58,756 nt of DNA. It comes from Bacilli bacterium. Lineage in GTDB: Bacteria; Bacillota_I; Bacilli_A; RFN20; CAG-826. The notes beneath the pieces were generated by a model. It made no database searches and had not been told where the DNA came from. It saw only the letters and a program-made list of their open reading frames with translations. A program made the position numbers and the translations under genes. The stretch is taken from contig JAIKYF010000071.1 in assembly GCA_024683495.1 (NCBI GenBank), forward strand, positions 1-58,756, given 5' to 3'. Positions 5,731 to 26,195 of this stretch are shown piece by piece (the stretch's first letter is position 1; each line of letters opens with the position of its first letter).

Positions 5731-5731
5731 C

Positions 5732-6205
5732 TTAATCCTCGCTTTCTCCGGAGTGGCGGACTTTGTTTAATTTGCGTTCCACATCCCTTTCTTTGATGGA
5801 TTCGCGTTTATCGTGGAGCTGCTTGCCTTTGGCAAGGGCGATTTCGAGTTTGGCATAGCCATGGGACAAGAAACACTTGGTGGGGACGCAGGTAAAGCCT
5901 TTAAGGCGAAGGGCCTCATCGATTTTCTTGATTTCCCTCTTATTCAAAAGAAGCTTTCTATCGCGGAGATGATCGACGTTATAGATGGTCCCTTCTTTAT
6001 AGGGGGCGATGTGCATGTTGGCAATGAAGGCTTCGCCGTTTTTGACATAGACATAGGCTTCATTGATGCCGGCGTTACGACCTCTGAGGGATTTGATTTC
6101 GGTCCCGGTTAAAACGAGTCCCGCGACCATGAAGTCACTGAGAAAATAGAGGAAATGGGCTTTCCTATTCTCTAATAATGTGGCGGAATCTTTCTTTCTG
6201 GACAT
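5732..6205 (-). CDS. smpB: SsrA-binding protein
   Basis: 157 aa with SmpB-like segments ENRKAHFLY...GLVLTGTEIKSLR...HIAPY...RDRKLLL. Confidence 0.92.
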   Translation of the reverse strand: MSRKKDSATLLENRKAHFLYFLSDFMVAGLVLTGTEIKSLRGRNAGINEAYVYVKNGEAFIANMHIAPYKEGTIYNVDHLRDRKLLLNKREIKKIDEALRLKGFTCVPTKCFLSHGYAKLEIALAKGKQLHDKRESIKERDVERKLNKVRHSGESED

Positions 6206-7920: not shown

Positions 7921-8592
7921 TTAAGGTAGTACATAGAAGTAAATCGAGACGAACATCAAGCCCATTCCGAGGATGACGAAGAAATGGAAAACGGTGTGCC
8001 ACCAGGGGGATTTTTTCTTGCCGATCGCATATAAAACCGCCCCGATTGTGTAGGCCACCCCTCCCATTAGCAGGAGGAAGACGGCAGGATAGAAGCCGAT
8101 GGCTTTGATTAGAGGAACCATCGAGATGACCACTAGCCAACCCATGCAGATATAGTTGATCATCGAGAATTTGGCGAATTTCTTGATGTCGCAGGAATTT
8201 AAGACGATGCCGAGGATCCCAAGGGCCACGCAGACTCCATACGTCGCCCAACCCCAGGCGGGGGAATAGCTTCTTAAGCCAATGAGGCAATAGGGAGCAT
8301 AGGTCCCCATGATCATGATGTAGATCATGTTGTGGTCCATGACCCGGAGAACCCTTTTGCCATTGTTTTTGGCTAAGCCATGATATAGGCAAGAGAAAAG
8401 GAACATCAAAAGCATCCCGAACATAAAGATGGAGACGGCGACGATGTTGATCGCCTCCCCCGTCTTCGCCGCCTTGATGATAATGAAAGGGGCCATGATG
8501 ATGGCAAACAAGGCGCCTAGACCATGTGAGATGGAGTTCCAGAGCTCTTGGGCAAGATTGTAGTTGGGTATCTCAATTTCCTTAACTGACAT
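7921..8592 (-). CDS. Hemolysin III / PAQR family membrane protein
   Basis: Seven-TM protein of 223 aa with PAQR-like motifs (NSISHGLGA..., MDHNMIYIMIMGTYAPY, WHTVFHFFVILG). Confidence 0.85.
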   Translation of the reverse strand: MSVKEIEIPNYNLAQELWNSISHGLGALFAIIMAPFIIIKAAKTGEAINIVAVSIFMFGMLLMFLFSCLYHGLAKNNGKRVLRVMDHNMIYIMIMGTYAPYCLIGLRSYSPAWGWATYGVCVALGILGIVLNSCDIKKFAKFSMINYICMGWLVVISMVPLIKAIGFYPAVFLLLMGGVAYTIGAVLYAIGKKKSPWWHTVFHFFVILGMGLMFVSIYFYVLP

Positions 8593-8671
8593 GGCTATAT
8601 CATAATAAGAAACTAAACAAAAGACAAGATAATCTTGTTTTGAAAACTAGATGATTTAAATTTAATCGATA

Positions 8672-9658
8672 TTATCTAGGGATTTTGTAATATTTTTTCT
8701 TACAATTTATAGTGATTTGTAAGGGAATTGCCTCGTTAATGGCCTTGATATATCGTTCGGAAGTTTTTCTAGAGATATAAAGAGCATTGGCATAAGAATC
8801 CAAATCGATTCCTCTAGAGGAGAAGGCGGAGGCAGAGATTAATTCCTCTAAGCCGGGGAGAGCCTCTACTTCTTCTAACCTATTTAGATAATCTCGTTTA
8901 ACTGAATTGCGGTTATAGATCTTAAGGAGGAGACCGCTATAGATAGAGGAGACTTTGGTTAAGAAATCATAGACATAAGGAGAGAGGTCGCCATGGTTAT
9001 TGGGATTGATGACAAGCTTATATTTATCGTTTAGATCCATTCCTAAGAGCTGATTCGCCAATAGGGATCCTCCTAGGGAAGTGATGTAAAAGCAGTTCGC
9101 AAAATTCTCTAAAATTTGAAATTGCGAAATGAAAGGATGTGCATGATGAAGGAAAAAGGCAAAGATGGCAGACTTAACTAGGGGGTCCAAGCCATAGATG
9201 TCTTTAACCGTCGAAGCGTATTTTAAATAAGTATCTCCAATTTCAGGATTGCCTTTTGAAGTATCATTCATCTCTTTCTTAAATAGATAAGGCCCACACA
9301 TGAGTGAATAGAATTTATTGAAGGAGGAGACATCTTCAAAAGGAAAAGAGAAACCACTTCTAAGAAGAGAGGCCCCATGCCCAATCATCTCATCATCAAA
9401 GTCATCGTCATATTGAAGGAATAATTCCTTTTCTAGCCGGGTTAGGCGGTTGAATAAACAATAGAATTCCGACTCTTTCGTCTCAATATCCGACAATAAA
9501 TATTTGATGGGGAGAGACTCATAATAGAAGAAATCTCCAAAAGTCTTGGTAGCATCGTTATTTTTAAGTCCTTCTAGATAACGAGCAAAAGACGCCTTCG
9601 AAAGAGACTTCTTCTTATCCGCTACTGAAAAATACTTGTAAATTGACGCGTATTTCAT
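8672..9658 (-). CDS. Hypothetical protein. It may be a degenerate Fic-fold protein with a C-terminal HTH.
   Basis: 328-aa ORF in an AT-rich setting. FFLHHAHPFISQFQILENF sits where a Fic core motif HPFx(D/E)GNGR would be, but it lacks GNGR. The C-terminal ISRKTSERYIKAINE is HTH-like. Confidence 0.55.
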   Translation of the reverse strand: MKYASIYKYFSVADKKKSLSKASFARYLEGLKNNDATKTFGDFFYYESLPIKYLLSDIETKESEFYCLFNRLTRLEKELFLQYDDDFDDEMIGHGASLLRSGFSFPFEDVSSFNKFYSLMCGPYLFKKEMNDTSKGNPEIGDTYLKYASTVKDIYGLDPLVKSAIFAFFLHHAHPFISQFQILENFANCFYITSLGGSLLANQLLGMDLNDKYKLVINPNNHGDLSPYVYDFLTKVSSIYSGLLLKIYNRNSVKRDYLNRLEEVEALPGLEELISASAFSSRGIDLDSYANALYISRKTSERYIKAINEAIPLQITINCKKKYYKIPR

Positions 9659-9830
9659 ATCTATAGTTTAACATTGATTTATTTATTTTTAAATAAACTA
9701 GGACAAATATTAAATATTTAGAAAAAAGCAAGTAATTATCGATAGATTAAAAATATTATAAAATCATTTAAGCATGTCACTACCTAAAGTCCTCAAAAAA
9801 TGGTAAATTATTGTTACGAGGTAAATAACA

Positions 9831-10187
9831 ATGAAAGAATTCGAATTCTACCATGACGTTAATGGAAACGTCGTCGCCTTACTTGCTGAAGGCAAAGCCC
9901 CTCTTGGCATGACCAAGATCGAACCAAAGGCTGCTGATGTCGGACAAGAAAAGCACATCCCAGTCGTCAAACACGAAGGCGGCGTCTTGAAGACCATCTG
10001 TGGTGAAGTCCCCCACCCCATGACCCCAGAACACCACATCTCCTGGTTTGCCGTCGCTAGCGAAGACAAGATCAGCTTCGTCTATATCCCAACCGATGGA
10101 CCAGCCGAAGCCTGCTTCCCAGAAGTCGAGCACGGAGTTGCCTATAGCTATTGCAACCTCCATGGTCTCTGGAAGAAAGAATTCTAG
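9831..10187 (+). CDS. Superoxide reductase (1Fe neelaredoxin/desulfoferrodoxin ferrous-iron domain)
   Basis: Iron-ligand motifs EKHIPVV, HPMTPEHHISW and YCNLHGLW are in the canonical order. The protein is 118 aa. Confidence 0.85.
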   Translation: MKEFEFYHDVNGNVVALLAEGKAPLGMTKIEPKAADVGQEKHIPVVKHEGGVLKTICGEVPHPMTPEHHISWFAVASEDKISFVYIPTDGPAEACFPEVEHGVAYSYCNLHGLWKKEF

Positions 10188-10209
10188 TTTTATAAAAAGA
10201 AGAAAAATT

Positions 10210-10238
10210 GTCTCTGTTTTACGACGGGGACTTTTTTT
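10210..10238 (+). terminator. Possible weak terminator after the superoxide reductase gene
   Basis: A GTCTC ... GGGAC stem (one G-U pair) is followed by TTTTTTT. Confidence 0.35.
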
Positions 10239-10266
10239 AACTTTGTTATCTTCCTAAAATAAAAGT

Positions 10267-11523
10267 ATGAAAGCATTGGTACTTTGCGGCGGAGGATCAT
10301 TAGGCATTTATGAGATAGGTGCTTGGAAATACCTCGAAGAAAGAGGAGAGCATTTCGATATCATCACCGGCTCCTCCATCGGTGCCCTCAATGGAGCCTT
10401 GCTTCTTTCGTCTAACTTAGAAGAAGCCATTGATTTATGGAACAAGATCACGGCCGAGGAAGTCATGGTCGATGGCTTCAATATGTATAAAGGGATGTTC
10501 GCCGACATCAAGAATGGCTCTTTGAAGAAAGCCCCGCAATTCATGAAGATCTATCTTAAGAATAGAGGGGCCGACATCACTCCATTCAAAAACCTCCTTA
10601 AGAAGTACATCAAACCCAAAATCATCGTCAAAAACCCCATAAAATTAGGAATCGTCACCACTTTATACAAGGGGCAAAAAGAAGTTAGAGTCCTTCTTAA
10701 TGAAGAGCCAGAAAAGAGAATCATCGATTGGCTTCTTGCCTCCAGCGCCTGCTTCCCGATTTTCCCCATGTATAAAATCGGCAAGGAAACCTATGTCGAT
10801 GGAGGATATAGCAATAACCTCCCCATCGACTACGCGATCGAGCTGGGAGCCGATGAAATCGTCGCCATCCCTCTGCCCGCCTTCCCGAAAGTCCCACAGC
10901 ATTCTGAAAGAATGAAACTTCCTTTCGTTAAGGCGATTAGGCCATCTCATCCAATGGGATTTTTGATGAACTTTGATAGAAAGACCCTCGATCAGAACTA
11001 TTTGATGGGTTATTTAGATGCAAGAAGAGCCTATGGTGAGACCTATGGGAATATCTTCTATTTCAAGAAAGACCCTAAACTAGATTCTTTAGCAGAGAAG
11101 TTCGTCTATGCAATCGCAAAAACTGATATAAATAACTATCAAAGAATCTCCGATTTCCTCGTTTTCAATGGCAAAAAGCCTATATCTTCCATGGATATGT
11201 TCATTCGAACCCTCGAGGAATTAGGCTCTTGGATTGATATCGATTTCTTAAAAGAATATGAACTCCAAGACTTCTTGACCGCCTGCCACGAGAAGATTCT
11301 GAAACTAAAGAAAGATAAATATTATCAGACTTTTGCTAAACGTCTGCCTCCCGCGAGAATCGTTTATCCTAAAGACCGGTTGGCCGCTTTAGATTATTGC
11401 TACAACCATTATAAGGATGAAAAAATCTCCAAAAGGCATCTTCAAATCAGAAGAGCCTCTCCGGAATCGGAAGCCGTCTACTTCCTCTTCCGGGTCCTGA
11501 GCCAAGAAGGCTACACGGTATAA
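10267..11523 (+). CDS. Patatin-like phospholipase
   Basis: Oxyanion GGGSLG, nucleophile elbow GSSIG (GxSxG) and catalytic DGG (VDGGYSNNLP). Confidence 0.85.
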   Translation: MKALVLCGGGSLGIYEIGAWKYLEERGEHFDIITGSSIGALNGALLLSSNLEEAIDLWNKITAEEVMVDGFNMYKGMFADIKNGSLKKAPQFMKIYLKNRGADITPFKNLLKKYIKPKIIVKNPIKLGIVTTLYKGQKEVRVLLNEEPEKRIIDWLLASSACFPIFPMYKIGKETYVDGGYSNNLPIDYAIELGADEIVAIPLPAFPKVPQHSERMKLPFVKAIRPSHPMGFLMNFDRKTLDQNYLMGYLDARRAYGETYGNIFYFKKDPKLDSLAEKFVYAIAKTDINNYQRISDFLVFNGKKPISSMDMFIRTLEELGSWIDIDFLKEYELQDFLTACHEKILKLKKDKYYQTFAKRLPPARIVYPKDRLAALDYCYNHYKDEKISKRHLQIRRASPESEAVYFLFRVLSQEGYTV

Positions 11524-11572: not shown

Positions 11573-12283
11573 TTAAAGGTAGTATTTATTGAGGACCTTT
11601 AAGCCGTTCTTTTCGTCTAATTCATAGACGAGTGGTTTGCCAGTTGGGATTTCAACGGCGACGATTTCTTCTGGAGTGAGGTGCTCAAGTTCCATGACGA
11701 GGGCTCTGAGGCTGTTGCCATGAGCGGCGATGAGTACTTTTCTGCCAGCCTTGATGGCGGGAGCGATCTTCTCGTCGAAATAGGGCTTAACACGTTTGGC
11801 GGTGTCGATAAGGCATTCGGTTAAGGGGAGATCGGCCTCGGTCATTTCGCCATTCTTGATCAATTCCTGATATTTTTCCTGATTGCCAGGGAAACGAGGA
11901 TCGGTTTTTTCGAGGGCGAGAGGTGGAACATCGGCAGAACGTCTCCAAAGATGGACTTGTTCATCGCCCCATTTGACGGCGGATTCGGCTTTGTTTAAGC
12001 CTTGGAGAGCACCGTAATGTCTTTCGTTAAGTCTCCAAGTATAATGCTTCTCGATGTCGCTTTCGCCAAGTTCGGCAAGGGCGAAATCCATCGTTTTGTT
12101 GGCTCTCTTTAAGACGCTGGAGAAAGCTAAATCGAAGGTGTAGCCTTTCTCTTTGAGAAGCTTGCCGGCGGCATGAGCTTCCTTAACGCCGTTCTCGGAG
12201 AGATCAACGTCGGTCCAACCGGTGAAGAGGTTCGAAAGATTCCATTCCGATTGGCCATGTCTAATCAACACTAATTTAACCAT
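11573..12283 (-). CDS. gpmA: 2,3-bisphosphoglycerate-dependent phosphoglycerate mutase
   Basis: Start chosen at MVKLVLIRHGQSEWN, the RHG catalytic motif at the canonical N-terminal position, with an AGGAAA RBS. The ORF-track start at 12325 adds 14 unlikely residues. Confidence 0.9.
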   Translation of the reverse strand: MVKLVLIRHGQSEWNLSNLFTGWTDVDLSENGVKEAHAAGKLLKEKGYTFDLAFSSVLKRANKTMDFALAELGESDIEKHYTWRLNERHYGALQGLNKAESAVKWGDEQVHLWRRSADVPPLALEKTDPRFPGNQEKYQELIKNGEMTEADLPLTECLIDTAKRVKPYFDEKIAPAIKAGRKVLIAAHGNSLRALVMELEHLTPEEIVAVEIPTGKPLVYELDEKNGLKVLNKYYL

Positions 12284-12412
12284 GATTAATTTCCTTTCAA
12301 TGTTGTCCCCTCTATTATAAATCAAGGAATGAAATTAAAAAGCCAAACAAGAAAGAATTTTTCTTGTCTTATCCTTGATAAAAGTTCTAGGCGAGGCGAA
12401 AATACAAGGGCT

Positions 12413-12826
12413 ATGAAAAAACTTTATATTGATTCCACCGCTAGAGACCTCTTAGTCGCTAGGCAATTAAAAGAGGTCCTCACCAAGATTGATATCGATG
12501 CCGAAGTCAATTCTTTGGAAGACCAATTCTCGGGAGTGATCCTTCTTTTATTCACTAAAGACACGGTTAAAGAAGAGATGTTCAGGGAATTCAGTTGGCT
12601 GACTAGCGAATTCGATTTCTCTAAGGTTAAGAATCTTCGGGTCTTATGTTTCCTTGCTTATCATTCAAAAGAAAGAAAGGCCGAAGACCTCTTTGAGGAA
12701 GTCGTTTCCCCTGTCTATGAGGATTATTTCTCGGAAGAATTCAAACCTTACGCCTTTGATTTCGATAACGAGGAGCCGTCCTTGGAAGAATTGCAAGAGA
12801 TCCTCTTTGAAGGCTACTCCCTCTAG
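12413..12826 (+). CDS. Small cytoplasmic protein of unknown function with an alternating beta/alpha (flavodoxin/TIR-like) pattern
   Basis: 137 aa from MKKLYIDST. The segments GVILLLFTKDTVKEEMFREFSWLTSEF and RVLCFLAYH resemble TIR beta-C/alpha-C and beta-D regions. The start is uncertain: the ORF-track ATG at 12329 lies only 46 nt from the gpmA start. Confidence 0.5.
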   Translation: MKKLYIDSTARDLLVARQLKEVLTKIDIDAEVNSLEDQFSGVILLLFTKDTVKEEMFREFSWLTSEFDFSKVKNLRVLCFLAYHSKERKAEDLFEEVVSPVYEDYFSEEFKPYAFDFDNEEPSLEELQEILFEGYSL

Positions 12827-12847
12827 GCATCTATATATTTCAAAATT

Positions 12848-12877
12848 GCGTGCAAATCCCGCACGCTTTTTATTTTT
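12848..12877 (+). terminator. Rho-independent terminator after the small 12413-12826 gene
   Basis: GCGTGC aaatccc GCACGC followed by TTTTTATTTTT. It contains the recurring GTGCAAATCCCGC motif. Confidence 0.7.
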
Positions 12878-12952
12878 AGGCCACTTACAAACTTTTCTTA
12901 CTTTGTCTTTTTCAACATCAGATAAATTTACTCTACCAAAAGGTAGAAAAAA

Positions 12953-13897
12953 TTGTTATTATTACATATACGAGGAAAAATCATACTCACAAGCATTCCA
13001 AAAGATAGGCTAAAAGCCGTACTCTATCTAAAAGATTTGTTAGTTGAGAAGAGAATCTATGACCTTCCAGGACCCATAGATTTATCTTTCGAGGGAACAA
13101 GCCCTTTCGTGATGAATCTATTAGAAGAGCTCCCAGCCTCTATCTATGTTGGTAAAACTCTCTCCATCTATCTTGAAGATGAAAGCGAGGTCCTCTGGGA
13201 TAAGGCCAAGTCGATGGAATATCTAGAAACGTTGGGTCTGGTCCGCTTCGAAAAACTCTCGAAGATGGGAATGGCTGAACCGAAAGGGACTGTGATCAAG
13301 GTTAATGACGAACTGGGAAAAAGCCTTGAATATAGTGATGAAGAGTATGAGAACTTCTACCGGGAAATCCTCCATTTCTCCAACATCTTCAACGCCTTCG
13401 ACAATCTCGATGTCGTTGAGGGATATAAGCCTCTAAAAGATCTGGTGGCAGAGAAAAATGATCCAGGTTGCTTCACTTGGAAATATTATCTCCCCTATCT
13501 CTCCATCTATGCGAAAGCCAAATATATCGGCTTGGAACTCGATGGCTCGACCTTAAGCAAGATAGTAATAAACCCGACAATCCGTTCCTTCGTTGGGCTC
13601 GATACTAATCCCATTAGACATGAGGATTTCTATCTCGCCTTAAAGGGCTTATATAAAATGAAGGGGGATTTGCTTACAAAAACGGCCTCGCTTGAACATG
13701 ATATGTGGATCATCCGATCCATCTCCAAGCTCGGCTATCTAGAGAGCAAGAAGCATCTATATGTCCCGTTTGAGGAATTACCGCTAAGCGAAGATCCATC
13801 ATTGGCGGTAACCTACAATAACGACATCATCAAATACGATTATTTTGGGGTCTTGTGCCTCAACTTATATGCCACCAAAGGGGGTCAAAATGAATAA
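12953..13897 (+). CDS. Hypothetical protein, first gene of the candidate system operon
   Basis: 314-aa ORF with a TTG start in the track. The first in-frame ATG is about 45 codons in. I recognised no motif. Its stop overlaps the next gene's start by 8 nt. Confidence 0.55.
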   Translation: MLLLHIRGKIILTSIPKDRLKAVLYLKDLLVEKRIYDLPGPIDLSFEGTSPFVMNLLEELPASIYVGKTLSIYLEDESEVLWDKAKSMEYLETLGLVRFEKLSKMGMAEPKGTVIKVNDELGKSLEYSDEEYENFYREILHFSNIFNAFDNLDVVEGYKPLKDLVAEKNDPGCFTWKYYLPYLSIYAKAKYIGLELDGSTLSKIVINPTIRSFVGLDTNPIRHEDFYLALKGLYKMKGDLLTKTASLEHDMWIIRSISKLGYLESKKHLYVPFEELPLSEDPSLAVTYNNDIIKYDYFGVLCLNLYATKGGQNE

Positions 13898-14795
13898 AAA
13901 ATTAGAAGAATTCGAAATCTATAAAACCGCATCTTCTCTCGTCGATGACGGTTTGAAGAAATTACTCGAAAAATGGCAGATCATTTCCGAGAGACGGGCA
14001 ACTAGCGAAGGCGTTCCTCTTTTGCCAAACATCTTCTTGGAGTGCTCCAATGCCTTTGAGATTCAAGAATTTGTGACCAATTTGGGAGTCTTCCTCTCTG
14101 AGCAGAGAATCATGGACTTCGATGGGAAAGCTTTATCCTATTACTACGTCCTCGATTATTCGCGTTCCTCTAAAGAGAATTCCAAAGACATCGAAACTAT
14201 GGAAAGCCTCACTTTCCCGGGCTTCACCCATTTCTACACCGTCATCAAAGAGCAACTGACGAGATTCGGTAAGCCATATAGAGGCGTCTTAGCCATCGAT
14301 ATCACCGATTGGATCGAGGGAAGGCATTATGACGAAATAAAATTCCACGATTTCTTGGCTTTCATGCACGATAACGATGAATGCACGTTGGCGGTTTTCA
14401 TCTCCAAGTGCCGCGATGCCTCGAAGAACAGCGACGCCTTCAAGGAAATCGCCGCGACTTCGAGATTGATTCGCATCAAAGCCGATCATGCCGATGTCTC
14501 CTTGTTCCTCAATCAATTCAAGGAGCTCATCCACGAAAAGGGACTTGAGCTCGATAAAGAGAGCGAGAAAGTCATCACCGAGACAATCGTGGCCGTCAGC
14601 GAGAACAAATACGTGGACATCCACCACTTCCTCAGTGAATTATCGGTCGATTTAGCCTATAACAAATTCATCGATTCCGCCGATGACAAAGTCATCCATG
14701 GCGATGAGGTCGACTACTATAAGAAAGATGGGGAATTCGTCTCCGCTTACTTATCTAGCGGCAATTACGGCTACGGATTTAAGGGGGCCAGATAA
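13890..14795 (+). CDS. Degenerate AAA+ (SpoVK/CbbX/EccA-like) protein lacking canonical Walker motifs
   Basis: Start at MNKKLEEF with a GGGGG RBS. The layout resembles SpoVK-type AAA+ proteins: LPNIFLECSNAFE sits where GxxGxGKT is expected, GVLAIDITDW where GVLFIDEA is expected, and TLAVFIS and SRLIRIKADHADVSLF where sensor regions are expected. Confidence 0.4.
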   Translation: MNKKLEEFEIYKTASSLVDDGLKKLLEKWQIISERRATSEGVPLLPNIFLECSNAFEIQEFVTNLGVFLSEQRIMDFDGKALSYYYVLDYSRSSKENSKDIETMESLTFPGFTHFYTVIKEQLTRFGKPYRGVLAIDITDWIEGRHYDEIKFHDFLAFMHDNDECTLAVFISKCRDASKNSDAFKEIAATSRLIRIKADHADVSLFLNQFKELIHEKGLELDKESEKVITETIVAVSENKYVDIHHFLSELSVDLAYNKFIDSADDKVIHGDEVDYYKKDGEFVSAYLSSGNYGYGFKGAR

Positions 14796-14797
14796 CT

Positions 14798-16516
14798 ATG
14801 AACTCAAGCAGATACAAAAGATATATCGGCGAGCACGCCTTCGACAATGACTATCTCAGCGAAGCCGAAATCAAAAGCGTCCTCAGCGAATTCAATACAC
14901 TCAATCCTAAGCCCGGTGTCTTAGCGGGTTTGCCACTCTTATCCGATGGGAAGACGATGTATTTGGATAATGCCGACTACCATACCTTGATTTTGGGCGC
15001 CACCGGTTCCATGAAGACCCGTCTATTCGTCATGCCTGGCGTCCATGCCTTAGGGCAGGCGGGAGAGAACATGGTCATCACCGATCCTAAGGGTGAGATT
15101 TATGAGAGGACTTCCGGCTTCTTGAAATCCCAAGGATACGACATCAAAGTCCTCAATTTCCGTGACACCGACCACACTGATTACTGGAATCCTCTATATG
15201 AGGCGGCCAAATATTATCGGGAAGGCAATAGCCAAGATAAGGATTTTGCCATCGGAATGGTCTCTGATTTAGTCCAGATATTAGCCGCCCCGTTCAAGGG
15301 CCCCAAGGGCGATCCCTATTGGATGGAAATGGCCACCAATTACACGATGGCCTGCATCCTTATGGAATTCGTCTTATGCAAAGACATCAACAAGATCTCT
15401 CTTCGCAGCGTCGATAGTTTCATCAACGCCGCGGCGGAAGATGAAAGCTATGATGATGACGATGAGATAGATATCAAACGTCTATTCTCCATCATCCCCC
15501 CGACTCACGTCATCTCCTCCAAGGGACGCGCGACCGTCAATACGGCCAGAGTCACAAAGCAAGGCATCGTCGTCACCGCCAAGAGCTTGACCAACATGTT
15601 CACCAACTCAATCGGCATCTCAAGAATGACGACTCTTAACACGATCAATATCCACGACTTCTCATCCAAAGATAAAAAGACCGCTTTATTCGTCATCGTT
15701 CCCGATGAGAAGACCTCCACCCACTCTTTGGCGGCCTTATTCGTCAAGCAAGTCTACGAAACCTTGGTCAGAGACGCTCAGAAATTAGAAGGCTTCCGCC
15801 TCCCAAGAAGACTCAACTTCATCTTGGACGAATTCGCGAATATGCCAGAGATCGCCGATATGGGCTCTATGATTTCCGCGGCTCGTTCCCGTAACATCCG
15901 TTTCAATATTGTCATTCAGAATAACTCCCAATTGGTCTCCAACTATGGCTTAGAGAAAGCCGAGACCATCAAGAGCAACTGCTTGAACTGGGTTTATCTT
16001 TCCACCAAAGAGAACGCTCTTCTCGAGCAACTCCAGAAGATGGGTGGCAATAAAGTCACAAGCCGGGGCGAAAAGCCAGTCCTCAATATGGAAGACCTCA
16101 ATGGCTTAAAGAAAGGTTGGGGATACGCCGAAGCCTTACTATTATTAGCAAGAGCCAAACCTCACGTCACCAAAATCACCGACATCGATTCCTATCCCGC
16201 TTATAAGAAGTTAGATGCGGTGCCATTCCCCAAACTCAAAAAGAAATTCGACTTCTACACCTATAGCGACATCTTGAAAGAACACTCCATGAGAGAGCTT
16301 AAGTATCTCTTCGAAAGAGACGTGGCCCTCACCTTGGCAGACCCCGATGATGAAAGCGAGAAGGCAGGGAATAAAACAGAAGAAGTGACCGGGGCCCCAA
16401 ATGATAGACCCGGCGCGAACATCGACGTCAATAAAGATACCGCCTCATCTCCGCTTAAGCCACCATTCGGAGATAATAAGGACGACGATGACGACGACGG
16501 TGGCTTCGATTGGTAA
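14798..16516 (+). CDS. VirD4/TraG/TraD-family (type IV coupling protein-like) ATPase. It is soluble, with no TM anchor and an acidic C-terminal tail.
   Basis: HTLILGATGSMKTRLFVMP...VITDPKGEIYERT (P-loop region), Walker B RLNFILDEFANMPEI and RSRNIRFNIVIQNNSQLVSNYG (TraG-D_C-like). There is no hydrophobic N-terminus. The protein ends in NKDDDDDDGGFDW. Confidence 0.8.
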   Translation: MNSSRYKRYIGEHAFDNDYLSEAEIKSVLSEFNTLNPKPGVLAGLPLLSDGKTMYLDNADYHTLILGATGSMKTRLFVMPGVHALGQAGENMVITDPKGEIYERTSGFLKSQGYDIKVLNFRDTDHTDYWNPLYEAAKYYREGNSQDKDFAIGMVSDLVQILAAPFKGPKGDPYWMEMATNYTMACILMEFVLCKDINKISLRSVDSFINAAAEDESYDDDDEIDIKRLFSIIPPTHVISSKGRATVNTARVTKQGIVVTAKSLTNMFTNSIGISRMTTLNTINIHDFSSKDKKTALFVIVPDEKTSTHSLAALFVKQVYETLVRDAQKLEGFRLPRRLNFILDEFANMPEIADMGSMISAARSRNIRFNIVIQNNSQLVSNYGLEKAETIKSNCLNWVYLSTKENALLEQLQKMGGNKVTSRGEKPVLNMEDLNGLKKGWGYAEALLLLARAKPHVTKITDIDSYPAYKKLDAVPFPKLKKKFDFYTYSDILKEHSMRELKYLFERDVALTLADPDDESEKAGNKTEEVTGAPNDRPGANIDVNKDTASSPLKPPFGDNKDDDDDDGGFDW

Positions 16517-16535
16517 TCAAATAAGGAGAATAACC

Positions 16536-17138
16536 ATGGCTGAAGAAAAAGAAGAAAAGAAAGAACTCAAGATTGACGAAAAGTCCCTTGAACTCTTCCA
16601 AAAAGACAGAAACATCCTCATTCTCGGGGAAATCAACGAGAAAATGGCAATCAATATCCTTCTCAGGCTCCTCTATCTCGATTATGAGAACCCCGATAAG
16701 GAAATCACCATCTACATCCACTCCCCTGGCGGATCGGTTTCGGCCGGCTTAATCATCGTCGATGCGATGCAAAACGTGAGAGCCCCGATTAGAACCGTCG
16801 ATATCGGCATGGCCGCCTCAATGGCCTCGGTCATCTTGGCCTCCGGCTCCAAAGGCAGAAGACAGATCTTCGAGCACGCCAAAGTTTTGATCCATCAGCC
16901 GATGATCGTCATGGGCGGGGAGACTGCCACCAACACGACCCAGGCGAGAAAACTCTATGAGGATATGGCCCATGAGCAAGAAATCCTCGAATCCATCTAT
17001 GCCCTCCACTCCTGTGGAAAATACACTCGCGAAGATTATATGAAGCTCACCGACAAAGGCGACTACACGATGGAAGCCGATGAGGCCATGAAGATGGCCC
17101 TTGTCGATAGCATCATCAAACCTAGAGACATCAAATAA
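16536..17138 (+). CDS. Divergent ClpP-family (S14) serine protease
   Basis: Start at MAEEKEEKK, 7 nt after AAGGAG. Conserved YIHSPGGSVSAG, GMAASMAS (Ser95), LIHQP (His120) and TDKGDYTMEADEA (Asp173/176). The N-terminus is E/K-rich rather than the usual ClpP axial-loop sequence. Confidence 0.85.
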   Translation: MAEEKEEKKELKIDEKSLELFQKDRNILILGEINEKMAINILLRLLYLDYENPDKEITIYIHSPGGSVSAGLIIVDAMQNVRAPIRTVDIGMAASMASVILASGSKGRRQIFEHAKVLIHQPMIVMGGETATNTTQARKLYEDMAHEQEILESIYALHSCGKYTREDYMKLTDKGDYTMEADEAMKMALVDSIIKPRDIK

Positions 17139-17178
17139 CCATTCGTTAAACTGACTATTGTGAAAAGGAGGTTTTCAT

Positions 17179-20124
17179 ATGCCCTCTGACGGAAACTTTC
17201 TTGCCTCCACTCCCGAACTAATACGATTCTATCTATGTTTAATCATCGGACTGATCGTTTATTTCGGCGTGCTCGTCGGGGTTATCTACCAAAGAATCAA
17301 AAGGAAAACCTCCCTTTCTCCCTTTATCATCATTTCTTTGTTCTTTATCGGACATCTAATCATTTTGATCCCGGTTTATACCTTCCTTTATGACCATCAG
17401 CAACTGATGGGCAATTCTTTAATCCAGAATGGAATCCAGACCGGGACCATCCCTTATAATAACGTTCCTTCGTATTGGCCAGCCTTCAAGATTATCTCCG
17501 GCGCCTTCACGTCCTTCGTCTTCCAGATCGATTTCGATGCGATGGAATATCTTTCCGAATGCGGGGATTGGATCATCCGTAACTACTTCATCTTCATCGC
17601 CATCACGGCCGTCGCCGACACTATCGCCACTTCCTACGCCTTGATTAGACTCTTCTTAAGAGCCTTGAAGGCAAATGGAAAAACCATGTTTAGGTGGTTG
17701 GTGAGAGAAGACATTTATTACATCTTCACCGATTTGGAATTCGACGAGATCAAAAGCTTCATCATCGAACTTGAATCCGGAAAGTCCCGTCCAGGAAGAA
17801 AACCCCCTTCAGTCCGCGTCATCTTGTCTAGATCATCTCAATATACCGACCCCGGACGTGAGCTCCATGACCAATTAGTCAACGCAAGAATCGCCGTCTT
17901 CGCCGAAGACCTTTCAAAGCCTCTTCTTATAAAATTCATGCGCAAACACCGCATATTTTATAAAAAGAACGAGAAAGTGAACTTCTATTCTCTCTACTAT
18001 AAAGATGAGAAAAACTACGAGTTCGCCAGAATCGCCTGCGAGATTTTCGAAGATTGCGCGAAGAAGAAAGATACTGAGCATTACAACAAAAGATTCAACA
18101 CCTACATCAAATACAACCACTTCTACATCTCTTATCAAAACGCCGAATTATTCTTAGAGAACAATAATGACTTCGCCAAAAAGTCCCGCGGGGCCATCAG
18201 CTTGTTTAACGAATATACTTCCAACGCCGAAGATTTCGTTTTCAATATGCCTTTGACCGAATTCATCCTCAAAAGAAAGGGTGAAGATAAAGATGTCAAA
18301 GTCAAATTCACCGCCTTCTCCACATGCAATCCTCGTTTGAAGGATGGCTTAGGGTTTGGATTCTTAGGAGGGGATGTCACTAATCAAAACATCTATTCGC
18401 TTATTCCTTCCGTCGATATCAACTTCTTCGGATTCGGGCGAATCAACCAGACCTTGCTCACCAAGATGAGCTATACATATCAGATTCCCGGTTGCAACAA
18501 AGAGACTATGGGGAATATCGATCCAAACGATCCTAATTCCTATAAACTCAACTTCTTCGTTTATTCCAATGATGACAATTCCGAATTCGTCGATGCCCAT
18601 TTTAGAGGGGTATCCAAGGAAAACGATGCGGAATTGACGAGGAATTTTGGATATTTCACCGATATATTCAATTTCGAAAACGAAATTAGGCTGCAGAATT
18701 CCTTAGAGAGAATCGTCGATCGGGCCTCCTACCATAACATCAATAAAGATGGGGAAGACATCGATGTCGAAAAACAACCCTCTAGAGAAGTCATCATCAT
18801 CGCGACGGGCGATCCTCATAACAATTTCGCCCTCGCCGTCAAGACTCAGCACATCATCCGCCAAATCATCGCGAAAAGAAAAGCCTTGGGCGAAAGATTC
18901 AAATCCATCCCCATCTTCGTCCATATCAACCGCGAGAAGATCTATAACTCCAGCTTCATCGGCGATGATATCTTCGAGATGAGGCAGATTAGCCCAGTCA
19001 TCAATAGGGATAATAACTTCCCAGGCGAAAACGGAACCTCAAGCGAAAGAGAGATTTATCTATCTACCGCCGTTCCAATCGTTATCTTCGGCCGCGATAA
19101 GCGTTTCCGTTCCGATGATAGCGCCTCTTCGCTTAAGCCATTCGCCGTCAGGAGCAAATATGTCTATGACTATGATTATGATTTGGTGTTGAGCAAAGAT
19201 GGCTATAGCTTCAGTTTGAAGAGAAACTCCAAGCCAACGATCGATGCCAAGGCCGAGAACAAATTCGACATCGATGATGTCCGTAACTGCGAATCCAACT
19301 ATGCGACCGCGGCTCATTTGCCAACGAAGTTAGGCTTAATGGGTCTATGCCCCGCTTTCGTCGCCGAGAAGGAAAACGCCGCTCAAAGACATGAAGCCAT
19401 CAAAGATAAGCTCGGTGCCCTCAATAACGTCTTCGATCTCAATGAAGTGGATTCAGGAGCTTTGACCGCCTCGATGAAGGAACTACAAAAATTGGTCGCT
19501 GAATATCTTGAGCACCGGAAATCCATCAAGGCTGATTCGAAGACCACAAATATCACTTTAGCCCAAAAACAAAAATATAAGAAAATCGTCAAATATTTAC
19601 AAAATAATACGGTTTTGCTCGAGAAATATTATGAAGTCTTCACTCTCGGCTTCGTGAACAGAATAAAGCCGGGACTAAGAATCCTCGCCGAGACCGAACA
19701 CAATCGCTGGCTTTATTATTGCTTGTCTAGAGGAGATGTCCCGATGAGCAGAGAGCACTTCTTCTCCAAGAACATCGAATATTATTCCACCAAAGGCACT
19801 AGAAGGGGCAATTTCTCCAAAGATGCCGGAGGAACCGTTCACTTCAACCTCATCGATTTCTCGAATAGAAAGCAAGCCATCCTCGACCAGGCTGTAGTGA
19901 GTCTATTAACCATCGCTGACGATAGTCCGAAAACCATTTATGAAGATATGAAGAAAATCTTCGAATCCTACTACTTCAACGATGCTAAACTCTATATCTT
20001 CTCGGATTTCTTCTTAGAAGGGACCGAATACGATTTAGTCGAAGAGGATAACTTCTTCGAAGTCTGCGAAGAGGATGTCGATTATAGCGGTTCGACAATC
20101 TCCACCGCCACGAAAAATCAATAA
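17179..20124 (+). CDS. Large polytopic membrane protein with cytoplasmic TrkA-N/Rossmann-like and C-terminal RyR-like regions
   Basis: 981 aa with an AAGGAGG RBS. About four N-terminal TM helices lie in the first ~170 aa. INFFGFGRINQTLL (aa ~414) and VIIIATGDPHNNFALAVKT (aa ~538) resemble KTN/TrkA-N segments. LAETEHNRWLYYCLSRGD...VHFNLIDFSNRKQAILD (aa ~835-900) resembles a RyR domain. Confidence 0.6.
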   Translation: MPSDGNFLASTPELIRFYLCLIIGLIVYFGVLVGVIYQRIKRKTSLSPFIIISLFFIGHLIILIPVYTFLYDHQQLMGNSLIQNGIQTGTIPYNNVPSYWPAFKIISGAFTSFVFQIDFDAMEYLSECGDWIIRNYFIFIAITAVADTIATSYALIRLFLRALKANGKTMFRWLVREDIYYIFTDLEFDEIKSFIIELESGKSRPGRKPPSVRVILSRSSQYTDPGRELHDQLVNARIAVFAEDLSKPLLIKFMRKHRIFYKKNEKVNFYSLYYKDEKNYEFARIACEIFEDCAKKKDTEHYNKRFNTYIKYNHFYISYQNAELFLENNNDFAKKSRGAISLFNEYTSNAEDFVFNMPLTEFILKRKGEDKDVKVKFTAFSTCNPRLKDGLGFGFLGGDVTNQNIYSLIPSVDINFFGFGRINQTLLTKMSYTYQIPGCNKETMGNIDPNDPNSYKLNFFVYSNDDNSEFVDAHFRGVSKENDAELTRNFGYFTDIFNFENEIRLQNSLERIVDRASYHNINKDGEDIDVEKQPSREVIIIATGDPHNNFALAVKTQHIIRQIIAKRKALGERFKSIPIFVHINREKIYNSSFIGDDIFEMRQISPVINRDNNFPGENGTSSEREIYLSTAVPIVIFGRDKRFRSDDSASSLKPFAVRSKYVYDYDYDLVLSKDGYSFSLKRNSKPTIDAKAENKFDIDDVRNCESNYATAAHLPTKLGLMGLCPAFVAEKENAAQRHEAIKDKLGALNNVFDLNEVDSGALTASMKELQKLVAEYLEHRKSIKADSKTTNITLAQKQKYKKIVKYLQNNTVLLEKYYEVFTLGFVNRIKPGLRILAETEHNRWLYYCLSRGDVPMSREHFFSKNIEYYSTKGTRRGNFSKDAGGTVHFNLIDFSNRKQAILDQAVVSLLTIADDSPKTIYEDMKKIFESYYFNDAKLYIFSDFFLEGTEYDLVEEDNFFEVCEEDVDYSGSTISTATKNQ

Positions 20125-20126
20125 TG

Positions 20127-20162
20127 AAAAACGAGTTCAGATGACGTTCTGAACTCGTTTTA
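20127..20162. terminator. Bidirectional terminator closing the candidate operon
   Basis: ACGAGTTCAGA / TCTGAACTCGT stem flanked by A and T runs, between convergent genes. It overlaps the stop codon of the phosphatase gene. Confidence 0.75.
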
Positions 20163-20978
20163 TTCTAAATATTTGCCTTTTATCTTGGCGATTTCCTCAT
20201 CGGTGAGGTTGATTTTATTTTTTAGATAATTGAGGAAGCTTCCATATTTATCGTCTAGATGGTCAAGCGCTCTATCGAGAACTTTCAAATCGACGCAGCA
20301 CACTCTTCTGAAGCCATCGCTATGGGCAAGTTCATAATCGTACTTTTCAGCCCTTTCTAACATGAGTTCATAATAATCCTGGGCAAAATAGTTGGTGAGG
20401 AGGAAATCATCCTCAATGAGCTCTTTAGAGGCTCCTAAAACCGAAAGAATGGCCGCGGAGGTTAATCCTGTCCGATCTTTACCAGCCGAGCAATGGAATA
20501 AAACGGCTCCTTCGGCCTTAAGAAGGATATCGAAGGTCTTTCTCAGGGAAATATGGAAATCGTCGTCTTCTAGTAATTTGATATATAAATCCTCAGTGAA
20601 GGTTGGGGAAATGGAAAGATAGAATTCCTCGAGACTCCGATTATCGGGATGGGGAAGACCGACGGCGATGGCGTCTGCCCCACTTCTATTGGCATTCTCA
20701 ACGCGGAAGGCGGGGTTGAAGATAATGGTCGCGCCTGGGACTTCTAAGTCTGGAGTAGCCGCGACCTCCAAGGAGTTGCGCAAATCCAAAATATACTGCA
20801 AATGATAGGTATGTTTAAGAATTTGGCGATCTTCTTCGTCAATGTTATGAAGATGTCCGGTCCGCAATAAAAGATTCTTTTTGATAAAGCGAGAATCCGT
20901 CATTTGATAACCGCCTAGTTGGCGGGCATTCCGGATATTCTTAGTATCGATTATGAAATCTATTGGGTTAAGGTTCAT
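20160..20978 (-). CDS. Protein-tyrosine phosphatase family protein (Y_phosphatase3-like)
   Basis: CX5R active-site loop HCSAGKDRTG. The protein is 272 aa. Confidence 0.8.
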   Translation of the reverse strand: MNLNPIDFIIDTKNIRNARQLGGYQMTDSRFIKKNLLLRTGHLHNIDEEDRQILKHTYHLQYILDLRNSLEVAATPDLEVPGATIIFNPAFRVENANRSGADAIAVGLPHPDNRSLEEFYLSISPTFTEDLYIKLLEDDDFHISLRKTFDILLKAEGAVLFHCSAGKDRTGLTSAAILSVLGASKELIEDDFLLTNYFAQDYYELMLERAEKYDYELAHSDGFRRVCCVDLKVLDRALDHLDDKYGSFLNYLKNKINLTDEEIAKIKGKYLE

Positions 20979-21666: not shown

Positions 21667-22428
21667 ATGAAGAAATCTGAAAGCGGAACAAAAGTGCGCC
21701 CCTTCGAAACCGAAGAAGGAATTGATGAAGCCGTCGCTACATCGATTTTGAATCTGGTCAAAAGAAAGCCAAATGCTTTAATATCCCTGACCCCCGGTCA
21801 TTCTTTGGATGGAGTTCTAGATAAGCTCGTCGACCTTGCCAAAGCCAAAAATGTGTCTTTCAAGAAAGTCAAAATCTACTTCGCTGAAGACTTCCTCGAT
21901 GTGCTTGAGGGAACCGCGACCATCAAAAGCCACTACTACGAGAAGTGGTTAAAGCAATTAAAGATTCCTGAAACCAATGTCCATTCTCCGACTTTGGCCA
22001 ATTATCGCTCCTATGACCAGCTCATTTCCGATGATGGAAAGATTGACCTTTGCTTGCTCACAATCGGAAACCGTGGCCGAATTGCCGGGAATAATTACCC
22101 TTCCAATAGGCATAGCAAAACCCATATCGCCAAAATTCCAAGAGAAAGATGGCTCAGCTATCTATCTTATTTCGGAGGGAATCCCGACATCGCACCAACC
22201 TATGAAATGACAATGGGCGAAGAGACCATCTTCAAAGCCAGGAAGATCTATATCATCGCCAAAAACTTGAAACATCTGGAGGGTTTGAGATCGTTAGCCT
22301 ATGGCTTAATCGGACAAAGGATGCCAATCGGCAACCTAAAATACCATAAAGATGTCTCGGTATATCTGACAACTAAACTAAACTCCTATCTGGAGTGGCG
22401 AGACAACTACTACGACCCTGAACTCTAA
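21667..22428 (+). CDS. NagB/6-phosphogluconolactonase-fold protein with degenerate catalytic motifs
   Basis: The scaffold resembles glucosamine-6-P deaminase. However, YFAEDF replaces FNLDEY and LLTIGNRGRIAGNNYP replaces LLGIGxDGHIAFNEP. Confidence 0.5.
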   Translation: MKKSESGTKVRPFETEEGIDEAVATSILNLVKRKPNALISLTPGHSLDGVLDKLVDLAKAKNVSFKKVKIYFAEDFLDVLEGTATIKSHYYEKWLKQLKIPETNVHSPTLANYRSYDQLISDDGKIDLCLLTIGNRGRIAGNNYPSNRHSKTHIAKIPRERWLSYLSYFGGNPDIAPTYEMTMGEETIFKARKIYIIAKNLKHLEGLRSLAYGLIGQRMPIGNLKYHKDVSVYLTTKLNSYLEWRDNYYDPEL

Positions 22429-23984
22429 GCAGGGTCTTTTCTTTGCTTTCCTCTTCCTAGGAAATAGGCTCCAAGGAATAAAGCGTTGATAAATACAAAA
22501 GTTCCTCCGGTGATAATCATCTGGAGCCATTCGGCTAAAGATGAGATATCAACGGAATGATGATAGATGAAATAAACCGCGAGATAGGCGATAAGAGACA
22601 TCGAAGCGAAGATGAGCAAATTCCGATAATAAAGATGAATCTTTAAGCCAATCTTCTTCTGATAATAGATAGAAGAGATGATGATATACCCCACTAGAAC
22701 TAATCCGCCTATAGAAATAAGCGGTCCCATCATTTTCCATCCATCAGGAAGCAAATAGATGAATAAGGGGGTTAATCCCGCCGAAAGAACCGCTAAAGCG
22801 AAGAGGACAACCGCCATGAATTTATGTTGGTTTTTGGCTCTTTGAATCTCGATTCCTAATTGTTGGCTAAGAGGGATGACCCACATCGTTAGGAAGATGG
22901 CGGAGAGGAGATAAATCTTATTTAAGCCGTCGGCAGTGATATCAGATTTCCCTAGCCAAACGCGGATAAAATGCTCACCACAGGCAGCGAATCCACCAGC
23001 TATAATCGAGAGGACGATAATCTGGATTCTACTGACTTTAAGGAAGAGGGAATTAATCTCTTCGTCTTGTTTTTCGATGGCCAATGAATTGACTCTAGGC
23101 GCAAAAGCGGAGGTTATGGCGTTGGAAATCTGAGCCTCATAAGTATAGAACTGGAGACCATAAGAGAAGATTGTGACGGCCGCCATACCGACCATATGTC
23201 CAAGGGTGACCTTGCCGAGGTTATTGATGACCATCGAGACGATGACCAATAAGAAGATATAGATGCTGAAGATAGCAACTTCCTTAAGCATCTTCTTATA
23301 AGCCCCTTTCTCTTTGAAGAGAGGGGCAAGGCCCATCTTTAGCTTGGATTTAGCATAGACTAGGCTCAATAAATCGAAGAAGATCATCACCGCCCCGTTG
23401 ATTATGGCGACGATTATGACATTCGCCCCAATGGCTAAGAAGATGAAGGATAAGCCAATCGAGATGACATGGACCAAAAGATAGAGAAGCTCTTCAAGGA
23501 TGAACTTCCTCCTAAAATACATGAACCAGGTGTATAAGGATAAGGCGAAATCTAAGCCCACCGAGAGAGAAAATACCAAGATCAAATAGAAGAGGGTTTC
23601 TAGATTAGCAGTTGTCGCATTCTCATAGGTGAAAATCCCATATTTATATAAAAATCCCAGGCAAATCCCAACTAAAATTACTAATGTCCCGATAATCGCA
23701 AAAGTAAATTGATAGAAGGAATTAACTTTCTTCAACCCTTCCTCTCCTTCTTCTTTTTCGTATTTAGTCGCGAATTTAATGTAGGAATTCTCCATCCCGA
23801 AAGAAAGCAAAAGCAACAAAGACACTAAAGATGAGGCGAAGAAATAAAGGCCATTATCGATGGATCCGACTTTCGAAAGCAAAAACGGCGGATAGAAAAT
23901 ACCCAAGACCACATAGACAATCAATCTAATATAGGTCAGGGAGATTCCGCCTTTAATGTTTCTTTTTTCTTTCTGCTCGAGCAT
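22425..23984 (-). CDS. Polysaccharide flippase (Wzx/MOP superfamily)-like membrane protein
   Basis: About 14 predicted TM helices. Start chosen at MLEQKEKRNIK with an AGGAAAT RBS. It sits next to a Wzy-like gene. Confidence 0.6.
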   Translation of the reverse strand: MLEQKEKRNIKGGISLTYIRLIVYVVLGIFYPPFLLSKVGSIDNGLYFFASSLVSLLLLLSFGMENSYIKFATKYEKEEGEEGLKKVNSFYQFTFAIIGTLVILVGICLGFLYKYGIFTYENATTANLETLFYLILVFSLSVGLDFALSLYTWFMYFRRKFILEELLYLLVHVISIGLSFIFLAIGANVIIVAIINGAVMIFFDLLSLVYAKSKLKMGLAPLFKEKGAYKKMLKEVAIFSIYIFLLVIVSMVINNLGKVTLGHMVGMAAVTIFSYGLQFYTYEAQISNAITSAFAPRVNSLAIEKQDEEINSLFLKVSRIQIIVLSIIAGGFAACGEHFIRVWLGKSDITADGLNKIYLLSAIFLTMWVIPLSQQLGIEIQRAKNQHKFMAVVLFALAVLSAGLTPLFIYLLPDGWKMMGPLISIGGLVLVGYIIISSIYYQKKIGLKIHLYYRNLLIFASMSLIAYLAVYFIYHHSVDISSLAEWLQMIITGGTFVFINALFLGAYFLGRGKQRKDPA

Positions 23985-26106: not shown

Positions 26107-26133
26107 TTTTGCCCAAAGGGCAACGAAACAATG

Positions 26134-26165
26134 AAAAAAATTATGGCATCAAACCATAATTTTTT
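26134..26165. terminator. Bidirectional hairpin between two minus-strand membrane-protein genes
   Basis: AAAAAAATTATGG catcaaa CCATAATTTTTT. Confidence 0.6.
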
Positions 26166-26195
26166 CATTTTTCCGTGCAAATCCCGCTTAAATTA
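26160..26195 (+). repeat. Copy of the ~36-nt intergenic element TTTTTTCATTTT(T)CCGTGCAAATC(C/T)CGCTTAAA
   Basis: Near-identical to the reverse complement of 49765-49801. The core 13-mer is also at 12850-12862. Confidence 0.6.

Follow-up and report, generated by a model that had tools for sequence, protein, structure and literature searches.

The plus-strand genes g1 to g5 of a Bacilli metagenome-assembled genome (MAG; contig JAIKYF010000071.1, assembly GCA_024683495.1, locus tags K5694_034xx) appear to form one member of a conserved gene module. The whole 58,756-nucleotide stretch that was analysed is called the window here. The invariant core of the module would be g2 and g3, a predicted pseudo-ATPase with the AAA+ fold and a soluble ATPase of the VirD4/TraG-type, or type IV coupling protein (T4CP), family. 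The usual companions of this pair would be a ClpP paralog of its own (g4) and a large membrane protein that evolves fast (g5), with g1 assisting in the window. An earlier note on this DNA, made from the sequence alone, had presented the cluster as a candidate undescribed conflict or defence system. Absent from that note was the feature that we found most informative, an IGF-type tripeptide in the C-terminal tail of g2. We propose that the module is a T4CP machine docked onto ClpP, and probably a conflict system; taken as one joint statement, this has in our judgement about an even chance of being right. The module itself is apparently real, conserved, rare and unannotated, and hosted by gut and rumen Firmicutes.

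The pseudo-AAA+ protein, its tail and its partners

Searches of Pfam, NCBIfam, PADLOC, PHROGs and PDB gave no sequence-level match for g2. An AlphaFold2 model built from a seven-sequence alignment reached a predicted local distance difference test score (pLDDT) of 83.5, with the tail residues 296–301 below 50. The best PDB match of this model in Foldseek was the Rubisco activase CbbX (3syk_A; E 3e-7, TM-score 0.53), followed by the AAA+ modules of clamp-loader RFC, RuvB, RuvBL and Sir3. There were 205 PDB matches at E≤1e-3, and the best 50 of these 205 were all AAA+ proteins. A viral structure library likewise returned RFC and 'SpoVK' AAA+ proteins (SpoVK TM-score 0.56; top TM-score 0.57). Both Walker A and Walker B are missing from g2, with 'LLPN' at the P-loop position and 'DIT.W' at the hhhhDE position, and the GxxxxGK[ST] pattern occurs in 1 of 118 members of the g2 family. 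The description of g2 as a SpoVK/CbbX-like AAA+ protein with destroyed Walker motifs was therefore correct, because a confident model matches CbbX and the Walker positions are replaced. We conclude that g2 is a predicted pseudo-ATPase and not a working AAA+ ATPase; since Walker A and B are absent, it cannot be the motor.

An exhaustive search with a profile of the g2 alignment recovered 294 clusters (50% identity) among 1.84 billion representatives, most of them on 1–5 contigs each, and the members are nearly all stand-alone proteins of ~285 residues. An x-Gly-hydrophobic tripeptide lies within the last 16 residues of 111 of the 118 full-length members listed. The tripeptide is IGF in 64 of the 118, LGF in 8, IGL in 6, VGF in 5 and MGF in 3. 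G[LF] was present in the last 12 residues of 103/118 members (87%); among control windows of equal size taken from other parts of these proteins, 10.5% contained it. g2 itself carries the form Y-G-F; it stands four residues before the C-terminal end, in the low-confidence tail, which is predicted to be disordered or flexible. All nine lineages inspected carry an IGF-type tail motif. ClpX, ClpA and ClpC use IGF loops to dock onto the ClpP ring at its hydrophobic H sites, and acyldepsipeptides mimic these loops (PMC9035409). g2 joins a conserved flexible IGF tail to an AAA+ fold, and two thirds of the lineages also encode a ClpP paralog. These features are most simply explained if g2 docks onto ClpP.

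The ClpP paralog of the window, g4, matches Pfam CLP_protease (PF00574) at 1.5e-44, and its Ser (AASMA), His (IHQP) and Asp align to those of the solved ClpPs 6hwm, 2zl0 and 1y7o, in agreement with the earlier assignment. Paralogs with 34–44% identity were found in L003, L009, L013, L015 and L018 (locus labels as in Table 1), and S95, H120 and D176 are invariant in this family. As the catalytic triad is kept, g4 is predicted to be an active-type protease. It falls below every NCBIfam ClpP equivalog cutoff (TIGR00493, 130 against 308.6; PRK00277, 155.7 against 249), and we place it as a ClpP-family paralog by sequence, not as the housekeeping equivalog. Alignments of g4 to solved ClpPs begin at residue 21–22, leaving the canonical axial-loop sequence without a counterpart; the N-terminal ~20 residues of g4 are rich in K and E and vary among the paralogs. 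A gate region that cannot be aligned fits a non-canonical partner.

Searches with g3 gave 269.4 bits against the NCBIfam model NF045973 ('VirD4-like conjugal transfer protein, CD1115 family'; cutoff 250), and g3 also passes three Pfam T4CP models (T4SS-DNA_transf, 6e-40; TraG-D_C, 6e-20). Walker A (GATGSMKT; family G[AS]TGS[MK]KT) and Walker B (LDEF) are intact, and K73, T74, D344 and E345 are invariant in 14 g3 homologs; g3 is apparently an active T4CP-type ATPase. A transmembrane scan detected no transmembrane or hydrophobic segment in g3, and hence no N-terminal membrane anchor, consistent with the soluble VirD4/TraG-type ATPase that had been proposed. Identity is 37–51% to the g2-linked homologs, against 26–33% to plasmid T4CPs. 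The T4CP on plasmid pEYLC1.2 has an N-terminal extension of ~134 residues ahead of the aligned part, and its neighbours are genes for a MobP3 relaxase, a pilin, TrbL and a VirB4-like (DUF87) protein. g3 shares with VirD4, TraG and TrwB the nucleotide-binding and all-alpha domains, and differs from them in lacking the N-terminal transmembrane region and relaxase, VirB4, pilin and TrbL neighbours. From the missing anchor, the lack of conjugation neighbours and the low identity to plasmid T4CPs, we assign the g3 clade to a putative exapted, anchorless branch of the Firmicute T4CP family. The C-terminal ~90 residues of g3 are unconserved; they end in a strongly acidic tail, DNKDDDDDDGGFDW (window 16420–16516), and the homologs end in basic, K-rich sequence.

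Together these three proteins resemble ClpXP, ClpAP and ClpCP in having a chambered-type Ser-His-Asp protease (g4) and an AAA+ fold with a flexible (I/L/V/M)-G-(F/L) tripeptide (g2) (PMC9035409). They differ in that the AAA+ protein has lost its Walker motifs, the tripeptide is at the extreme C-terminal tail and not in an internal loop of the large domain, the sole ATPase of the operon is the RecA-fold T4CP g3, and the protease lacks the canonical gate sequence.

The earlier note had described g5 as polytopic with TrkA-N-like and RyR-like parts. The transmembrane scan did place 3–4 helices at its N-terminus, followed by ~800 further residues. Residues ~180–340 form a Rossmann-like alpha/beta stretch modelled with moderate confidence. 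Foldseek of the g5 model returned nothing significant, only generic Rossmann-type matches, with the best RCK match (Slo1 RCK) at E 0.47; Pfam gave no TrkA-N or RCK match, and the TrkA-N-like part is unsupported by these searches. The conserved motifs of g5 are FGFGxIN and, at the C-terminus, 'ETEHNRW...VP', within a block 'LAxxEHNRW...VP...HxCLT'. Pfam RyR (PF02026) matched two of seven isolated C-terminal segments (best 8.9e-5) and neither full-length g5 nor full-length g1, and a PDB profile search aligned the LAE.H..W motif with RyR1 (5c30) at a non-significant E of 1.6. A RyR-like nature of the C-terminal block of g5 is weakly supported by these matches.

The EHxxW helix recurs at the C-terminus of g1 ('LEHDMW...VPFEELP'), in the giant protein of L015, which has it twice, and in the unalignable large proteins of L018 and L014. 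By hhalign, the L018 giant is linked to g5 through the EHxRW helix only, and no link was seen between the L014 giant and g5 or between g1 and a 551-residue protein of L013. Homologs of g1 (23–33% identity) lie directly upstream of a g2-like gene in L003/4/5 and L009-12 only. Since a g1 hidden Markov model (HMM) also matches the C-terminal extension of the L015 giant (2e-7) and the L014 1270-residue protein (2e-4), the comparison suggests a domain common to g1 and these two large proteins. Sequence searches of PDB with g0, g1, g2 and g5 gave nothing significant.

Recurrence of the gene set in nine lineages

Related loci were taken from the neighbourhoods of g3 homologs, and their open reading frames (ORFs) were compared by BLAST and HMM. 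The nine neighbourhoods inspected, one for each lineage, are compared in Table 1. A g2-like gene is directly upstream of a g3-like gene in all nine, with a 4-nt overlap or a gap of at most 12 nt, and the g2-like genes match the family HMM with E values from 2e-36 to 1e-130. A ClpP paralog is present in six of the nine; five, the window included, have a g5 homolog, and three more have an analogous large protein. Full-length homologs of g5 (22–27% identity) were found in L003, L006, L013 and L015, and also in L001/2, which stand outside the nine lineages. The gene set thus recurs as a unit in other genomes. Gene order varies between lineages, which argues that the linkage is kept by selection and is not inherited synteny.

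Table 1. Gene content of the related clusters by lineage.
Lineage	Core pair	ClpP paralog	Large protein	Further arrangement
Window	g2→g3	yes	g5	g1 upstream of g2
L003-5	g2→g3	yes	g5 homolog	g1-like gene upstream of g2-like gene
L006-8	g2→g3	no	g5 homolog	
L009-12	g2→g3	yes	none	g1-like gene upstream of g2-like gene
L013	g2→g3	yes	g5 homolog	
L014	g2→g3	no	soluble 1270-residue protein, same motif	
L015/16	g2→g3	yes	g5 homolog	order ClpP-giant-g2-T4CP
L017	g2→g3	no	502-residue polytopic protein	
L018/19	g2→g3	yes, divergently transcribed	non-alignable giant with transmembrane helices and EHQRW	

Wider searches found few relatives, and the neighbourhoods of g3 homologs were the sole source of the true homologs. 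With k-mer-prefiltered homology searches g2 recovered only itself and g5 two distant matches, and exact-sequence look-ups of g5 returned nothing. A tblastn search with g2 gave no match in 72,556 plasmids or in 50,697 phage records. Pattern scans of 185,579 GTDB species representatives (with g3 and the g2 alignment) and of viral contigs found nothing; because these scans rest on few peptide patterns, their negatives are weak evidence. One short contig, L012, was found by the pattern scan of JGI metagenomes.

These data bear directly on the idea that the cluster is what decay has left of an integrative and conjugative element or a prophage, or that unrelated genes came together by chance. Such an origin would suit the passing of a conjugative T4CP family model by g3 and the resemblance of g4 to phage prohead proteases (PHROG 94, 2e-31). 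However, g4 matches cellular ClpP with a better score than it does those proteases, and the plasmid T4CPs are distant from g3 and carry an N-terminal region that it lacks. The genes are intact and tightly spaced or overlapping, each with a Shine-Dalgarno motif, and the g2 searches of plasmids and phages were blank. Furthermore, the set recurs in nine lineages with no relaxase, VirB4, integrase, capsid or other virion gene called in any of the nine neighbourhoods, so that embedding in a conjugative element or prophage was not seen in a single lineage. We regard this explanation as largely refuted and extremely unlikely.

Further observations concern the related loci. L014, a 16-kb Bacilli MAG contig, has two soluble T4CP-like paralogs (1775–3340 and 8879–10450; 61% identical), with the g2-like gene and the 1270-residue protein gene upstream of the second copy only. 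The giant gene of L008 (3532–6020) is split into parts of 382 and 447 residues and is intact, at 829 residues, in the near-identical L006 and L007; the split may reflect a frameshift, pseudogene formation or faulty assembly. Two accessory families were seen in relatives and not in the window. The first, of 183–215 residues, is encoded in L003 (7618–8172), in L006 as two copies (5507–6076 and 8540–9097) and in L009 (3080–3631), and the second is a ~600-residue Sel1-repeat protein of L006 (6370–8367) and L013 (15967–17766).

Proposed mechanism and the question of a conflict role

We propose that the C-terminal IGF-like tripeptide of g2 would insert into the H sites of a ClpP ring, formed by g4 or, in clusters without a paralog, by the ClpP of the host. 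g2, which is probably ring-forming like other AAA+ modules, would bridge a hexameric g3 motor to the protease. The outcome would be an ATP-dependent ClpP machine with a RecA-fold T4CP motor instead of an AAA+ unfoldase. The ordinary task of a T4CP is to recognise relaxase-DNA and effector proteins and pass them on, and g3 could supply ATP-driven substrate engagement as motor or as substrate receptor. g5 may tether the complex at the membrane and could be a sensor, a regulator, a substrate or an effector, and g1 may contribute a further RyR-like module in the clade of the window. The module would most likely act in inter-genomic conflict, against phage or conjugative DNA, by destroying incoming protein or nucleoprotein or by triggering abortive-infection proteolysis. 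Alternatively, the g2 tails could open the ClpP gate on a signal, as acyldepsipeptides do, with suicidal proteolysis as the result. A more specific version makes the module an immune system in which the exapted soluble coupling protein would recognise incoming relaxase signals or phage DNA-protein ends at the membrane, the giant protein would position it and the IGF-tailed pseudo-AAA+ ring would thread substrates into ClpP; we consider this full version quite unlikely.

The ClpP partners known so far are active AAA+ unfoldases, all docking through internal loops of the IGF type. In this module a dead AAA+ protein bears the putative docking tripeptide on its tail and is encoded beside a coupling-protein-type ATPase in every lineage. 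If the complex is real, it would represent a new way of powering or gating ClpP and the repurposing of a conjugation ATPase outside DNA transfer. It would also probably be a new family of conflict systems, whose large RyR-like membrane component is shared with DO-GTPase systems, and bacterial RyR-like domains gain a defined genetic context. Should the immune version hold, the module would be the first ClpP with a non-AAA+ motor (RecA/FtsK-HerA-fold) and the first T4CP-based defence system.

The same proteins could instead form a minimal transport apparatus, in which g3 and g5 would move DNA or protein across the membrane and ClpP would process it, comparable to archaeal Ced or to ESX. Passing substrates to a membrane channel is the known job of the g3 family, g3 has a weak match to CedB (E 0.0039), and g5 and its analogs have N-terminal transmembrane helices. 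ESX comprises the CbbX-like AAA+ protein EccA, the FtsK-like EccC, the protease MycP and polytopic membrane proteins. By analogy only, the part list here parallels that of ESX: a CbbX-like AAA+ protein, an ATPase of the FtsK-HerA superfamily, a serine protease and membrane proteins. The homology is, however, no closer than superfamily; the AAA+ protein is dead, the protease is ClpP where ESX has a subtilisin, and WXG100-type substrates are absent. The 3–4 helices of g5 are few beside its ~800 soluble residues, the giant of L014 is soluble and L009 has none. Moreover, the neighbourhoods share no conserved candidate gene for a substrate or a secretion signal; ClpP, a chambered protease of the cytoplasm, is atypical for secretion processing; and the IGF tail of g2 points to a cytoplasmic degradation complex. 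A transport role is, on balance, very unlikely.

A conflict role was considered from the genes around the related clusters. In L006, L007 and L008 a 1227-residue TIR_2 plus NB-ARC (STAND-type) gene lies 20 nt past the giant gene on the same strand (L006 14217–17900). Upstream of the cluster in L003/L004 is a minus-strand gene (484–5100) for a 1538-residue DUF4011/AAA_11/AAA_12/MTES_1575 helicase; DUF4011-type helicase genes are common in defence islands. In L003/L004 (15022–21683), L015 (12555–21692) and L016 (7293–16430) the cluster is followed directly, on its downstream side, by a long operon. Its products are a transglutaminase-like protein, an AAA_2/AAA_5 ATPase of ~750 residues, proteins of ~110, ~500 and ~600 residues, a radical-SAM protein (Fer4_12) and DO-GTPase2. 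The two lineages with this abutting DO-GTPase operon are only 41–42% identical in g3. In L001 (1–13111) and L002 a distant g5 homolog of 1036 or 1055 residues is the last gene of an operon with radical-SAM and DO-GTPase2 genes. DO-GTPase systems are predicted conflict systems (Kaur et al. 2020, PMC7159879). As distant g5 homologs found by direct search end DO-GTPase operons, the giant may be a module common to both kinds of system, and the arrangement suggests either a link between the two systems or joint use of the giant RyR-like module. Across lineages the large component is divergent or replaced, gene order is shuffled and accessory genes vary. The family is also rare and comes mostly from metagenomes. 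This shuffled, variable architecture and the rarity fit a conflict system.

Several points weigh against the docked conflict machine proposed above. The composition of the cluster is uniform with the rest of the contig, with no anomaly, and its neighbours in the window, like those in L017 and L018/19, are housekeeping genes. PADLOC-DB v2 gave no model match save a weak one of g3 to mad8 (7e-9), with the other five proteins blank. Docking rests on a short motif and on gene linkage, the motif counts come from a family whose collecting profile included the tail columns and slightly favours motif carriers, and the lineage counts cover nine neighbourhoods, with ~285 further g2-family clusters outside them. 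L006, L014 and L017 keep the IGF-type motif with no ClpP nearby, so that there the proposal has to rely on the housekeeping ClpP. Finally, the AlphaFold2 model of g5 is poor (pLDDT 47.9).

Some of these points favour a housekeeping role, in which the module would be a membrane-associated ClpP machine for quality control or turnover of membrane or secreted proteins, with g5 as adaptor and g3 extracting or translocating the substrates. The clusters of the window, L017 and L018/19 lie among core genes (gpmA-like, SmpB, glycosidases, aminoacyl-tRNA synthetase) with no mobile or defence genes nearby, the composition of the cluster is that of its contig, and the evidence for ClpP coupling fits this role equally well. 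A housekeeping machine is nevertheless hard to reconcile with a family so rare in the profile search and blank in the GTDB pattern scans, with a gene order, large component and accessory genes that vary by lineage, and with the conflict-type operons that several relatives adjoin. We judge it rather unlikely. Thus the earlier suggestion of a defence-type system gains from the conflict-type neighbours of the relatives and loses from the weak mad8 match and the housekeeping context of the window; a defence role is plausible on circumstantial grounds.

Comparison with described systems supports the earlier statement that the gene combination matches none of them. With IetAS the module has in common the broad principle of pairing an NTPase with a protease; IetS is a subtilase and not a ClpP. 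The mad8 match of g3 recalls MADS, of which no methyltransferase or other gene was found here. DO-GTPase systems are neighbours of the clusters of L003 and L015/16 and share the giant in L001/2, and differ in having a DO-GTPase/GAP1 core pair where the module has its pseudo-AAA+/T4CP pair; a tblastn search found no DO-GTPase operon in the window. The paper on DO-GTPase systems mentions neither ClpP, VirD4, TraG nor RyR (PMC7159879). No description of such a system came up in the literature, whether the search was for VirD4/TraG together with ClpP and defence, for coupling proteins paired with a ClpP-like protease or for IGF loops in defence. Within the libraries searched, the module is apparently undescribed and has no counterpart among known Clp proteases, type IV secretion systems or defence systems.

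Operon layout and the rest of the window

The ORF map of the window has six plus-strand genes, g0 to g5, at 12413–20124 (Table 2). g1 and g2 overlap by 8 nt, and the gaps between g2/g3, g3/g4 and g4/g5 are 2, 19 and 40 nt. A Shine-Dalgarno-like purine-rich motif (AAAGG, AAGGGGG, AAGGAG or AAGGAGG) lies 5' of every start, and the second of the two terminators separates g5 from the convergent phosphatase gene. The block, its spacing, the ribosome-binding sites and both terminators were all found as the earlier note had them, and Pfam confirmed its gpmA-like and phosphatase flanks.

Table 2. Features of the cluster and its borders in the window.
Feature	Position	Strand	Description
gpmA-like His_Phos_1 gene	11573–12325	−	flank; Pfam
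g0	12413–12826	+	137 residues, acidic
Intrinsic terminator between g0 and operon	12848–12876	+	hairpin 12848–12866, GC-rich 6-bp stem, then TTTTTATTTT T-run; −11.2 kcal/mol
g1	12953–13897	+	314 residues, TTG start
g2	13890–14795	+	301 residues
g3	14798–16516	+	572 residues
g4	16536–17138	+	200 residues
g5	17179–20124	+	981 residues
Bidirectional hairpin terminator at operon end	20128–20161		14-bp stem between A- and T-runs; −20.2 kcal/mol
Y_phosphatase3 gene	20160–20978	−	flank; Pfam

g0 had been read as a TIR/flavodoxin-like gene, an assignment that was unsupported: no sequence match was found in Pfam, NCBIfam, PADLOC, PHROGs or PDB. A phmmer search detected no g0 homolog in any related locus, and g0 is unrelated to the 183–215-residue accessory family upstream in other lineages (hhalign probability 0.2). 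As it is blank in these libraries and has no homolog beside the related clusters, g0 is probably outside the system.

No relaxase, VirB4, integrase, capsid, portal or terminase gene was found among the 36 window ORFs scanned (ORFs under 120 residues and about a dozen of 120–280 residues lie outside this set, and ten of those in it had no Pfam match), in keeping with what had been stated for the whole stretch. The 30 ORFs scanned beyond the cluster matched housekeeping families (GatA/GatB, LigA, the UvrD/PcrA helicase, class II aminoacyl-tRNA synthetases, TsaD, Mur ligase, glycosyltransferases and ABC ATPase) or nothing in Pfam. A search for tRNA genes in the window was negative.

Other features of the window were also recorded. 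Two genes before the operon, at 10267–11523 on the plus strand, lies a gene for a patatin-like phospholipase (3e-34). Some defence systems use patatin domains as effectors; no association of patatin with the cluster was seen in the related loci. The ten ORFs that were blank in Pfam at 1e-3 to 1e-5 are 305–717 residues long. Four of them are consecutive on the minus strand within 22425–28691, just past the neighbours of the cluster, and the others are at 6239–7891, 8672–9658, 40555–41568, 43104–44759, 49835–51055 and 57578–58501. A thiamine pyrophosphate (TPP) riboswitch (RF00059, 65.8 bits) was detected at 51199–51306 on the plus strand, upstream of the ORF at 51223–52032.

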